Below are positions 6,613-9,199 of a DNA stretch of 20,910 bases, piece by piece. The notes under the pieces were generated by a model. The model was not told where the DNA came from. It ran no database searches and saw only the letters and a list, made by a program, of their open reading frames with translations. The position numbers were made by a program, and so were the translations under genes. Numbering within the stretch: position 1 is the stretch's first letter; each line of letters begins with the position of its first letter. Source of the DNA: a virus (taxonomy: Duplodnaviria > Heunggongvirae > Uroviricota > Caudoviricetes); the IMG/VR virus record IMGVR_UViG_2671181019_000012, positions 1 through 20,910 of that record; one strand, 5' to 3'.

Positions 6613-6934
6613 GGCCTGTCAGTTTCTCAAGATATCCAGACCTACCGCTACCAACTGGATACGAACAGGCCGCCTACAGGCAACACGCAAAGACCCCACT
6701 AAACTAAAATCTCCTTACCTCACAACACGACAAGCCTGCATTGCGGCGCTTCAGTCTCCGCTGCATACTGTCCAGGTGAGCGCGGGTGATGGCATAACAG
6801 AGGAAAGAAAATGTCACTCTTCCGCAGAGGTGAAATATGGTACGCCAGTTTCACATTGCCGAACGGTAAAAGATTTAAACAGTCTCTTGGAACAAAGGAC
6901 AAAAGGCAGGCGACAGAACTCCATGACAAGCTAA
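6584..6934 (+). CDS. xis: Excisionase (AlpA/Xis-type HTH)
   Basis: [31 protein letters not shown] directly upstream of and overlapping int; ATG 6584 after GAGG. True 3' end uncertain. Confidence 0.55.
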
Positions 6935-7974
6935 AGGCTGAAGCATGGCGGGTCAGCAAACTTGGTGAAATACCTGATATAACGTTCGAGGAAGCGTGTG
7001 TCAGGTGGCTTGAAGAGAAAGCACATAAAAAATCACTGGACGATGACAAAAGCCGGATCGGATTCTGGCTTCAACATTTCGCAGGAATGCAACTAAGAGA
7101 CATTACTGAATCAAAAATTTATTCAGCAATGCAGAAAATGACGAACCGGCGTAATGAGGAAAACTGGAAACTCAGGGCAGAAGCATGCAGAAAAAAAGGG
7201 AAACCTGTTCCAGAATACAAGCCAAAACCAGCGTCTGTTGCAACGAAGGCTACGCATCTTTCATTTATAAAAGCCCTACTAAGAGCCGCAGAGCGTGAAT
7301 GGAAAATGCTGGATAAGGCACCAATTATTAAAGTGCCTCAACCAAAGAATAAACGGATCCGCTGGCTGGAGCCCCATGAAGCACAAAGGCTGATTGATGA
7401 ATGTCCGGAGCCATTAAAGTCTGTTGTTGAATTTGCACTGGCAACAGGCTTAAGACGCTCGAACATCATCAACCTTGAATGGCAACAAATAGATATGCAG
7501 CGCCGGGTGGCATGGATAAACCCGGAAGAGAGTAAATCAAACCGCGCAATCGGCGTTGCGCTGAATGATACTGCATGTCGCGTATTGAAAAAACAAATCG
7601 GGAATCATCACCGTTGGGTATTTGTGTACAAGGAAAGCTGTACCAAACCAGACGGAACGAAAGCGCCAACAGTAAGGAAGATGCGGTATGACGCAAACAC
7701 AGCCTGGAAAGCGGCGCTGAGACGGGCTGGTATTGATGATTTCAGATTTCACGACTTGAGACACACCTGGGCAAGTTGGCTGGTTCAAGCCGGAGTCCCG
7801 TTGTCAGTGTTACAGGAAATGGGAGGCTGGGAGTCTATCGAAATGGTTCGTCGATATGCTCACCTTGCACCTAATCACCTTACCGAACACGCACGGCAAA
7901 TAGACTCGATCCTGAACCCATCGGTCCCAAATTTGTCCCAGTCAAAAAATAAGGAAGGTACTAATGATGTGTAA
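6811..7974 (+). CDS. int: Tyrosine integrase (lambda family; resembles DLP12 IntD from memory)
   Basis: 387 aa; catalytic-region signatures ([16 protein letters not shown]); adjacent to tRNA att core. Confidence 0.9.
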
Positions 7975-7988
7975 CTTATTGATTTAAA

Positions 7989-8037
7989 TGGTGCCGATAA
8001 TAGGAGTCGAACCTACGACCTTCGCATTACGAATGCG
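7989..8037 (-). tRNA. Partial tRNA-Thr(CGU) 3' fragment (thrW-type att core), not a complete gene
   Basis: Minus strand reads CGCATTCGTAATGCGAAGGTCGTAGGTTCGACTCCTATTATCGGCACCA (anticodon loop, T-arm, acceptor 3' strand, CCA); 5' half absent. Confidence 0.75.
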
Positions 8038-8125
8038 TAAATTGATCTTGTAAAATCAATACCTATCGAATTTAAATGGATTTTTTGCCACAATATTGCC
8101 ACAGTTCGTTAGGAATCAGACAGAA

Positions 8126-9199
8126 ATGGCGACTATACGCAAACGTGGTAACTACCAATGGGAAGCTCAAATCCGTAAACGTGGTTTTCCCTCTCAAACC
8201 AAAACCTTTAACACCAAAGTAGAAGCAGAAGCTTGGGCCAAAATGATCGAGTCAGAAATGGCGAGAGGAGTTTGGCTTAGCCGCAGCGAAGCGGAATCTA
8301 CGACATTGTATGAAGCCCTAACGCGATATGAAAAAGAGATTGTTCCCGACAAAAAAGGGGCAGTGCAAGACCGATCATTGGTGCGGATACTAAAAGGCAC
8401 TCAGCTGGCGAAAAACTATATGGCCAGCATCAGGAGTGCCGATGTCGCCAAGCTGAGAGATGAATGGTTGAAAATCTATGCTCCTGCAACCGTTTTAAGG
8501 CGTTTGGCCTTACTTTCTCATGTATTCAATGTTTCGCGGAAAGAATGGGGCATGGAGAGCCTGCTGAACCCCGTAGAGGCCATTCGCAAACCCCAACCCA
8601 AGAACTCCAGGACCAGACGCCTAGAAGCGCTGCCTGTAGTTTCTGAGAAAACCGGTGTTACGTCAGGAAAGCAAATAGCCAACGAGATCGAACATATCAT
8701 CGCCGCAACACATTCATTAGTATTGCCAGCAATCATTCTTCTGGCGTTAGAGACAGCCATGCGCCGTAGCGAAATCGCAGAGCTTCGATGGCGCTTTATC
8801 GATCTTGATCGGCGAGTTGCACATCTGCCGGATACTAAGAATGGTAATGCCCGCGATGTCCCTTTATCAACGAAAGCCATTACGATACTGTCCAGTCTCA
8901 AGGAACATTCTAAGCCAGCTGCTGATAAGGTTTTTGATATGCGTGCAGACGCGATTACCCGAGCTTTTGACCGAGCTGTAAAACGAGCCAGAGAACGATA
9001 CGAGAAAACAAACTCATTATGTGATGAATCTTTCCTTAAAGATTTAAGATTTCATGACCTTCGACATGAAGCAACTTCTCGACTTGCTGAAATTTTCCCT
9101 ATGCATGAACTAACCAAAATTACAGGACATAAAGATCCAAGAATGCTAATGCGGTATTATCATCCAAAAGCTGAAGATTTGGCGTTAAAGTTGAAATAA
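8126..9199 (+). CDS. Tyrosine integrase (second, distinct from int at 6811)
   Basis: C-terminal RFHDLRHEATSRL...LMRYYH catalytic signature; ATG 8126 (ORF track begins at TTG 8096). Confidence 0.85.
   Translation: MATIRKRGNYQWEAQIRKRGFPSQTKTFNTKVEAEAWAKMIESEMARGVWLSRSEAESTTLYEALTRYEKEIVPDKKGAVQDRSLVRILKGTQLAKNYMASIRSADVAKLRDEWLKIYAPATVLRRLALLSHVFNVSRKEWGMESLLNPVEAIRKPQPKNSRTRRLEALPVVSEKTGVTSGKQIANEIEHIIAATHSLVLPAIILLALETAMRRSEIAELRWRFIDLDRRVAHLPDTKNGNARDVPLSTKAITILSSLKEHSKPAADKVFDMRADAITRAFDRAVKRARERYEKTNSLCDESFLKDLRFHDLRHEATSRLAEIFPMHELTKITGHKDPRMLMRYYHPKAEDLALKLK

Follow-up and report, generated by a model that had tools for sequence, protein, structure and literature searches.

Introduction

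Integrative mobilizable elements (IMEs) often occur in tandem with prophages, and the integrases of such neighbors are distantly related, share their specificity, and leave chimeric attachment (att) sites inside the array (Guedon et al. 2017, PMC5704250). In Escherichia coli, the threonine tRNA gene thrW is among the most used integration hotspots (PMC7545054), and in Salmonella Typhimurium the island StmGI_0323 is found at thrW, where it has a P22-like prophage as its tandem partner in strain L1864 (Fu et al. 2017, Sci Rep, PMC5575072). The IncP islands and PIMEs are thought to take advantage of conjugative plasmids of the IncP type, which in some cases has been shown (Guedon et al. 2017, PMC5704250; Perta et al. 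2026, bioRxiv 10.64898/2026.01.12.698999). Here, we analyze a stretch of 20,910 nucleotides of a virus record (IMG/VR record IMGVR_UViG_2671181019_000012, positions 1 to 20,910; hereafter the window), in which the integrase gene of a lambdoid prophage (int1) and the integrase gene of an island with IncP-type mobility genes (int2) flank a 49-nt fragment of thrW.

Very probably, the window covers a boundary inside a tandem array of integrative elements at thrW. This is what an initial annotation, made from the sequence of the window alone, had proposed when it took the prophage and the island to have integrated one after the other at the same tRNA-derived core. The observation is real and was correctly read, and the configuration is a standard one that has already been published.

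Results

A hybrid att site between two integrase genes

The int1 gene (6811-7974, plus strand) is followed by a gap of 14 bp (7975-7988), by the thrW fragment on the minus strand (7989-8037) and, after another 88 bp, by the ATG of int2 at 8126, all at the positions originally given. Read on the minus strand, the fragment is CGCATTCGTAATGCGAAGGTCGTAGGTTCGACTCCTATTATCGGCACCA, which matches the 3' end of intact thrW from E. coli genomes in 49 of 49 positions. It corresponds to nucleotides 28-76 of the 76-nt tRNA-Thr(CGU) gene, and the match breaks sharply at 8037/8038. What the fragment contains is the 3' part of the 5' strand of the anticodon stem, the anticodon loop with CGU, the variable loop, the T arm, the 3' acceptor strand, and the CCA end. 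Re-examination finds no complete tRNA at the junction: ARAGORN reports no tRNA anywhere in the window, and the Rfam tRNA model scores 22.3 bits, which is under its gathering score of 29.

The junction is a hybrid, made of the int1 arm of the phage, the core, and the int2 arm of the island. The arm on the phage side (7972-7988) reads AACTTATTGATTTAAA and lies directly 3' of the tRNA end. Its sequence is similar to that of the native chromosome after thrW, TAACTCTTTGATTTTAA, and 16-17 nt of the arm are present also in the attP of phage SfI, in loci that carry only the prophage, and in a third element described below. The core itself (7989-8037, minus strand) contains, in positions 7989-8034, the 46-nt attP core of SfI. 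The arm on the island side, together with the region upstream of int2 (8038-8125, plus strand), is identical in genomes that carry the island only, the island with the prophage, or the island with the third element. The tRNA identity contributed by the phage is 46 nt (…GAAT|TAT in attP) and that contributed by the island is at least 49 nt (…GAATGCG|TAAATT), where both blocks of identity reach from the CCA end back into the anticodon stem.

Several repeats occur in the island-side arm: an inverted repeat, ATTGATCTT/AAAATCAAT, at 8041-8060, a 10-bp sequence, ATTTAAATGG, at 8070-8079, and two copies of TTGCCACA that are 11 bp apart (8085-8092 and 8096-8103). The pair of TTGCCACA sequences is kept, as TTGCCACACTCTTGCCACAGTT, upstream of the start codon of a 69%-identical integrase of Yersinia enterocolitica that resides at a site other than tRNA-Thr, and may be an arm-type site of the integrase or a regulatory site.

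The sequence ATTTAAATGG is found also at 7982-7991, and the initial annotation had described the two copies as a direct repeat that brackets the core. The repeat exists and was placed correctly, and there is one more copy at 18826-18835 on the minus strand, with 0.12 matches per window expected by chance. As a repeat generated by integration, or as a target duplication, it was rejected. The first copy consists of phage arm DNA and the TGG that complements the CCA end of the tRNA, the second consists of island arm DNA, and each copy is found when its own element is alone at thrW. Neither copy is invariant, since the first is ATTTTAATGG in SfI and strain MB19, and the second is ATTTAAATAG in strain WAT and in Citrobacter. 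With one copy in each element and variation of both among strains, the repeat is not a signature of integration and delimits nothing; it may reflect chance in AT-rich arms, where ATTTAAAT is itself palindromic.

The thrW locus in other genomes

The junction was compared with 5426 complete E. coli genomes, in 116 of which the island is present. Its int2-side junction always opens with the same core. Left of the core there is the native chromosomal flank (paoD and a truncated LysR gene) in 32 genomes at a query coverage of at least 80% (about 29 in full), another element with DUF3987/YfjI-type genes in 13 genomes, and the 3' end of int1, as in the window, in 17 of the 5426 genomes. One of these 17, strain 19KM1776, keeps only 159 bp of int1.

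Both the prophage and the island are found alone at thrW. In strain 98206, int1 is followed by the same 14 bp and then by complete thrW, proA, and proB, which is the canonical arrangement of a single lysogen. In strains WAT and ETEC6, the chromosomal flank with paoD and the LysR gene is followed by the core and int2. As a side observation, ETEC6 (L007, around 3952-3999) has a displaced core with a deletion of one nucleotide, TGGTGCGATAAT for TGGTGCCGATAAT, and no 'tRNA-Ser' is called there by PGAP. At the distal end of the island in MB19 and E54 lie intact thrW and then proA, with the island-specific flank …TTATTAGAAAA(A/G)A|TGG; the island of E54 is 13.6 kb long, and the corresponding end of the window falls about 700 bp short of intact thrW. 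The intact gene and the other att copies, which the initial annotation had suggested looking for outside the window, are thus located in related genomes. Taken together, the occurrence of each element alone, the hybrid junction between them, and intact thrW at the far end of the island bear out the occupancy in tandem of one tRNA-Thr-derived core, and the direct repeats that mark such an array at a tRNA gene are seen in the near-identical arrays of MB19, E54, TA8571, and a Salmonella contig.

Two strains of E. coli are of particular use here. In TA8571 (L018, cores at 27094-27142 and 48443-48491), the flank of the third element is followed by a 46-nt core, the P' arm of the phage, a prophage of about 21 kb, the int1 arm, a 49-nt core, and the island arm. 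This is a triple array at thrW, consisting of the DUF3987/YfjI-type element, a defective lambdoid prophage, and the int2 island, in which every boundary is a hybrid att site. In A23 (L008, core at 3952-4000), the flank of the third element is followed directly by the 49-nt core and the island arm, so that A23 holds an array of the TA8571 type minus the prophage. The simplest reading is that an SfI-type integrase put the phage into, or took it from, a tRNA fragment with other mobile elements on either side. From the internal hybrid site of A23, when compared with TA8571, follows that the 49-nt fragment would be usable as attB.

Similar arrays have different partners. The Salmonella contig, in which int2 is 99% identical, has the 3' end of a P22-type int gene, the 49-nt core, and the int2 island, with a second 46-nt core and P' arm 5.3 kb to the left, and in a Citrobacter genome the left flank of the island is different again. 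Prophages with int1 to the left of the core are not the same from strain to strain, and in related arrays they are truncated in MB19 (IS3) and in E54 (IS66). E54 (L011, around 5091-5139) has, besides, an extra 46-nt core with the P' arm of the phage, which is inverted with respect to the other two att copies and has IS66 and a truncated integrase gene beside it, an arrangement that suggests that the left end of the prophage was inverted or rearranged in association with IS66. The window as a whole is covered by none of the 5426 complete E. coli genomes, the best coverage being 69%.

The two integrases

The int1 product is a tyrosine integrase of the SfI/P22 group with 387 aa (PF00589, E 3e-48), of a lambdoid prophage that targets thrW, and it is identical to the Int protein of SfI, a serotype-converting phage of Shigella, in 382 of 387 positions (99%). 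The int2 product (8126-9199, plus strand) is the tyrosine integrase of the island, with 357 aa (PF00589, E 1.6e-26) when counted from the ATG at 8126; the mechanically defined open reading frame (ORF) begins at a TTG at 8096. The two integrases are different, as the initial annotation had it, but to call them unrelated was too strong, since both are tyrosine recombinases that share 30% identity over the catalytic domain (E 3e-18) and have the RRS, HDLRH, and RY(A/Y)H motifs.

Copies of int2 with 99-100% identity occur in E. coli, Salmonella enterica, Klebsiella aerogenes, Citrobacter koseri, and Lonsdalea. Homologues with 63-70% identity are found in Yersinia, Aeromonas, and Burkholderiales, and some of these have been named 'shufflon-specific DNA recombinase'. 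The flanks of the 69%-identical Yersinia homologue were checked, and no tRNA-Thr sequence adjoins it. The int1 and int2 genes are 151 bp apart and co-oriented with the excisionase gene xis of the prophage, and simple scans of the 151-bp gap predict neither a terminator nor a sigma-70-like promoter.

The prophage

Only 6.8 kb of the window belong to the prophage. Its xis gene (6554-6934, plus strand) overlaps the start of int1 and encodes an excisionase (phrog_2907, E 1.4e-51; Pfam HTH_17, E 1e-8); PGAP places the start at 6584, and the equivalent gene is labeled xis in the SfI record. That GenBank record (JX509734) has xis, int and then, 14 bp after int, a 46-nt misc_feature called 'attP core', for which it notes similarity to SfII, SfV, and SfX. 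The left element of the window combines the same features, namely an SfI-type integrase, an attP core next to it that matches the 3' part of thrW exactly, and xis upstream, by which it belongs with the SfI-type/P22 group.

Upstream of xis are lambdoid early-left genes, which encode a cI-like repressor, an N-like antiterminator, Ral, a methyltransferase, and a DksA-like protein. The genes of the early region that lie in the window form a mosaic, of which any single phage record covers just 46-49%. A gene for a Q-like antiterminator (156-548, minus strand) lies about 400 bp from the gene for the cI-like repressor (932-1633), which leaves no room for cII, O, P, and nin. The junction at the breakpoint 805/806 is present in none of the 5426 complete E. 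coli genomes, and the breakpoint probably reflects an internal deletion in the prophage.

The island

Downstream of int2 (9209-10313, plus strand) are the genes of a 296-aa membrane protein, with phrog_26661 as its sole match, and of a VbhA-like antitoxin, named 'antitoxin VbhA family' in RefSeq. The VbhA-like gene (within 10086-10313) is frameshifted by the loss of one T from a run of seven near 10162 (around 10160-10167), as compared with E54 and MB19, so that it would be either a pseudogene or the product of a homopolymer sequencing error. After it comes an ORF of 70 aa and then, on the minus strand (10616-12992), an IncP-type mating-pore module with trbL (Pfam TrbL, E 2e-29), a 57-aa lipoprotein gene, and trbJ, the product of which scores 381.8 bits against a cutoff of 286 for the NCBIfam equivalog. 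The lipoprotein gene (12013-12186, minus strand) is a small ORF with a lipoprotein-like signal between trbJ and trbL, which is the position of the entry-exclusion gene trbK. The architecture with trbJ, a gene at the trbK position, and trbL has likewise been described for IncP islands (PMC5704250).

Further on is traJ (13074-13439, minus strand), which encodes a relaxosome accessory protein that by family binds oriT (Pfam NikA-like, E 6e-23; RefSeq 'conjugal transfer transcriptional regulator TraJ'). A candidate IncP-type oriT (13490-13560) is found a little upstream of traJ, where the nick-like sequence TATCCTGC (13547-13554, plus strand) stands by a 9-bp inverted repeat, GTAAAGTAG/CTACTTTAC. 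The assignment is tentative and is made from the position and the adjoining repeat, by analogy with RP4 and the PIMEs (bioRxiv 10.64898/2026.01.12.698999). A 97-aa Xis/AlpA-like protein (13710-14003, minus strand; phrog_66 'excisionase and transcriptional regulator', E 7e-6; phrog_6355, E 2.5e-31) is, on this weak similarity, the probable recombination directionality factor of the island.

The remainder of the island holds the gene of a HigA-like antitoxin (14701-14958, plus strand; named after the RefSeq annotation of an identical gene), that of a 420-aa protein with no function assigned (15614-16876, minus strand; phrog_13366), that of an MltR/MtlR-like regulator (17124-17651, minus strand; Pfam MtlR, E 2.7e-6), and a cargo cluster of three genes (18166-20910, minus strand). 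The three genes are anti-phage candidates that match PADLOC models Hp3, Hp2, and Hp1 in full length (E 3e-80, 2e-160, and 5e-176), and the window ends with the start codon of the last of them, for which the RefSeq name is PD-(D/E)XK nuclease. Hp1-3 may be the '3HP' anti-phage system. The main text of Rousset et al. 2022 leaves this undecided.

In other strains the same backbone carries other cargo. The island of MB19, which shares the backbone and is about 25 kb long, has a gene pair of the dynamin family, an 'ABC-three component' system, IS903B, tetR(B)/tet(B)/tetC, and ISVsa5 (L001/L005, 590-615 kb of the record), and that of 19KM1776 carries a retron-associated gene. As far as these annotations go, the cargo region is a variable hotspot of defence and resistance genes.

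The island combines a tyrosine integrase with an IncP-type trbJ-(trbK)-trbL module, which is what characterizes IncP islands and PIMEs. Of the PIME core genes alpA and repA, repA was not found and alpA is doubtful, and the relaxase gene traI of IncP islands was not found either. By its gene content the island belongs with the integrative mobilizable elements of the IncP-island/PIME kind, although it falls outside the published core-gene rule for PIMEs. Because its mobility genes are IncP-type, the helper to be expected for its transfer is an IncP-type conjugative plasmid and not the prophage, and by analogy with these elements we infer that its mobilization would be IncP-dependent.

Discussion

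How the array would have been formed

Consider two elements, in each of which attP would duplicate the 3' part of thrW (over 46 nt in the SfI-type phage and at least 49 nt in the island), with the crossover of the tyrosine recombinase taking place inside this block. The extent of the blocks of identity is what tRNA-targeting integrases that cross over in the anticodon stem-loop would be expected to leave, and the anticodon stem-loop is on these grounds the most likely position of the crossover here. Each insertion would restore a full tRNA gene on the proA side and shift a 3' fragment to the far side of the element. When the second element inserts at a copy that is already flanked by the first, the two would come to share a hybrid site, to which each contributes one arm. 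The order on the plus strand would then be the chromosome on its pao side, an att copy, the lambdoid prophage ending with xis and int1, the hybrid att site, the island of about 13.6 kb from int2 onward, intact thrW, and proA. Since each element would have its own integrase, its own Xis-type factor, and its own pair of arms, their excision is expected to be independent, and to judge from the sequence the prophage and the island would be competent for excision at the present day.

A number of points weigh against this account or parts of it. The junction does not tell which element came first, since it would come out the same in either order; a reading of the order from the identity blocks of 46 and 49 nt was rejected for this reason. 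The window shows only the middle att copy, and the outer copies and intact thrW are deduced from genomes that are 98-100% identical to it over the shared parts. The breakpoint at 805/806, where the Q-like gene stands beside the immunity region, suggests that the prophage is defective. As regards the island, the call of oriT leans on the short motif TATCCTGC, which was found three times with 2.4 occurrences expected by chance, the Xis-like assignment of the 97-aa protein is weak (phrog_66 at E 7e-6 and no Pfam match), and neither a relaxase nor a replicase domain is found in the island ORFs of at least 100 aa with Pfam, NCBIfam, and PHROGs.

Alternative explanations

Among the alternatives, the one that survives best accepts that the elements integrated in sequence and site-specifically, and takes the array to be a fossil, now fixed, in which a defective prophage and the decayed remnant of a conjugative element neither excise nor transfer. 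We regard this as possible, although not as the probable state of the locus. It accords with the Q-like gene about 400 bp from that of the cI-like repressor, with the lack of space for replication genes and a breakpoint found in no complete genome, with the truncated prophages of MB19 (IS3), E54 (IS66), and 19KM1776 (159 bp of int1), with the frameshift in the vbhA-like gene, and with an island in which no relaxase, coupling protein, or replicase is found. Yet both integrase ORFs and the xis of the phage are full-length and the catalytic motifs are intact, and the identity of 99-100% between int2 copies across five genera argues for recent horizontal movement. Cargo varies by strain next to a junction that stays identical and, furthermore, PIMEs without a relaxase are reported to be induced by the helper conjugative plasmids pB10 and pKJK5 of the IncP group (bioRxiv 10.64898/2026.01.12.698999).

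The initial annotation had also raised the possibility that the island depends on the prophage or interferes with it. In its strong form, the island would be a phage satellite that depends on or parasitizes the adjacent prophage. The two elements do lie next to each other, int2 is co-oriented with xis and int1 with no terminator predicted between them, and the island carries the candidate anti-phage system PADLOC Hp1-3. However, most carriers of the island are without this prophage (about 30 with the chromosomal flank and 13 with the other neighbor, against 17 with int1), and the left-hand prophages that do bear int1 are not the same in different strains. Pfam, PHROGs, and NCBIfam detect no capsid, packaging, primase, or phage-regulator genes in the island, and no phage structural gene, coupling protein, or full mating pore; what it has instead is traJ, trbJ, and trbL of IncP type. 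Dependence on the prophage is not upheld by these findings, and a helper-satellite pair is very unlikely. A generic interference of the island with phages is possible, as its cargo matches candidate anti-phage models.

It is less likely still that the window belongs to one composite element, which has two integrases and enters and leaves the chromosome as a whole. It is true that int1 and int2 are co-oriented with only 151 bp between them, but each half is also found at thrW without the other, between two junctions of its own, so that the integrases are not those of one contiguous element, and an att core lies between them. Moreover, the outer att arms come from different elements, from which follows that neither integrase would find a matching arm for canonical excision of the whole.

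That the hybrid junction encodes a genuine long tRNA, as in the 112-nt 'tRNA-Ser' (equivalent to 7989-8100, minus strand) which PGAP calls in most of the island-bearing genomes listed (e.g., L001 21490-21601, L011 18406-18517), is the least credible explanation of all, since ARAGORN finds no tRNA, the subthreshold Rfam match uses a different 5' half, there is no cloverleaf fold and the folding energy is ordinary (z = -1.0), and of the 112 nt the 49 at the 3' end are thrW while the 63 at the 5' end come from the island arm and the int2 leader, so that the call appears to be a recurrent annotation artefact of RefSeq.

Consequences of the probable tandem array

With the window read as the internal junction of a tandem array, the two elements could also be coupled in cis. 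Read-through into int2 is possible because the three genes xis, int1, and int2 point the same way and the gap between int1 and int2 has no predicted terminator or promoter, so that an SOS-induced, N-antiterminated transcript from pL might cross the core and enter int2. Such coupling would resemble the classical gal escape synthesis in induced lambda lysogens. We consider it improbable; if it were to occur, recombination of the island would become responsive to induction of the prophage. A related idea, which we also consider improbable, is that the common core is a substrate of both integrases, so that the composite would occasionally be excised and moved as a unit by conjugation or transduction.

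The value of the analysis lies mainly in annotation. Two separate mobile elements are delimited at the thrW hotspot, the island is identified as a mobilizable element of the IncP-helper type with variable cargo, namely candidate defence genes here and tet(B) in MB19, and a recurrent mis-annotation in RefSeq, the 112-nt 'tRNA-Ser' on the hybrid junction, is exposed. The comparison of genomes points, in addition, to a phage integrase that can target a tRNA fragment flanked by another element. No new biological question is raised, since both the accretion of elements in tandem at tRNA genes and this family of islands next to a P22-like prophage have been published.

Comparison with known systems

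The left element is closest to phage SfI and its relatives (SfII, SfV, SfX, and the P22 group), with which it shares an Int protein of 99% identity, the layout of xis, int, 14 bp, and attP core, and the prophage-only arrangement at proA. It differs from them in that the prophage att site on the tRNA side abuts a mobile element and not the 5' half of thrW, and in its probable internal deletion.

The island is like the IncP islands and PIMEs in being a small, integrase-bearing element with traJ, trbJ, a gene at the trbK position, trbL, a candidate oriT by traJ, an antitoxin, and a large variable immune cargo. It differs from them in that no repA/repC, traI, or traK is found in the part of the island in the window and alpA is weakly supported. 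The PIMEs of bioRxiv 10.64898/2026.01.12.698999 share an attB next to guaA, whereas the site of the island is thrW, and the integrase of the island may be of another clade than theirs.

The junction as such has counterparts in the cis-mobilizable elements (CIMEs) associated with ICESt1/ICESt3 and in IME_Sag2603_tRNAlys, which stands in tandem with a decayed integrative and conjugative element (ICE). In both, an internal att site of chimeric origin lies at the 3' end of a tRNA gene, and the integrases overlap in specificity with less than about 30% identity (PMC5704250). The partner here is a prophage and not an ICE, and the array is known from sequence.

The closest relative of the whole arrangement is StmGI_0323. 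It has the same site, thrW, and its ORFs 6-11 correspond to a 97-aa protein, TraJ (121 aa), TrbJ (264 aa), a 57-aa protein, TrbL, and a 70-aa protein, accompanied by a membrane protein and a terminal ORF14 called 'shufflon-specific recombinase' (PMC5575072). In addition, the Salmonella contig with the 99%-identical int2 has the same hybrid junction. The equivalence rests on the ORF table (product and size) and on this contig. The two arrays differ in the partner, which here has an int gene of SfI type and there one of SPN9CC/P22 type, in the host, which here is E. coli, and in the thrW-proximal cargo, which in the present island consists of the gene for the 420-aa protein, the MltR-like regulator, and the Hp1-3 cluster.

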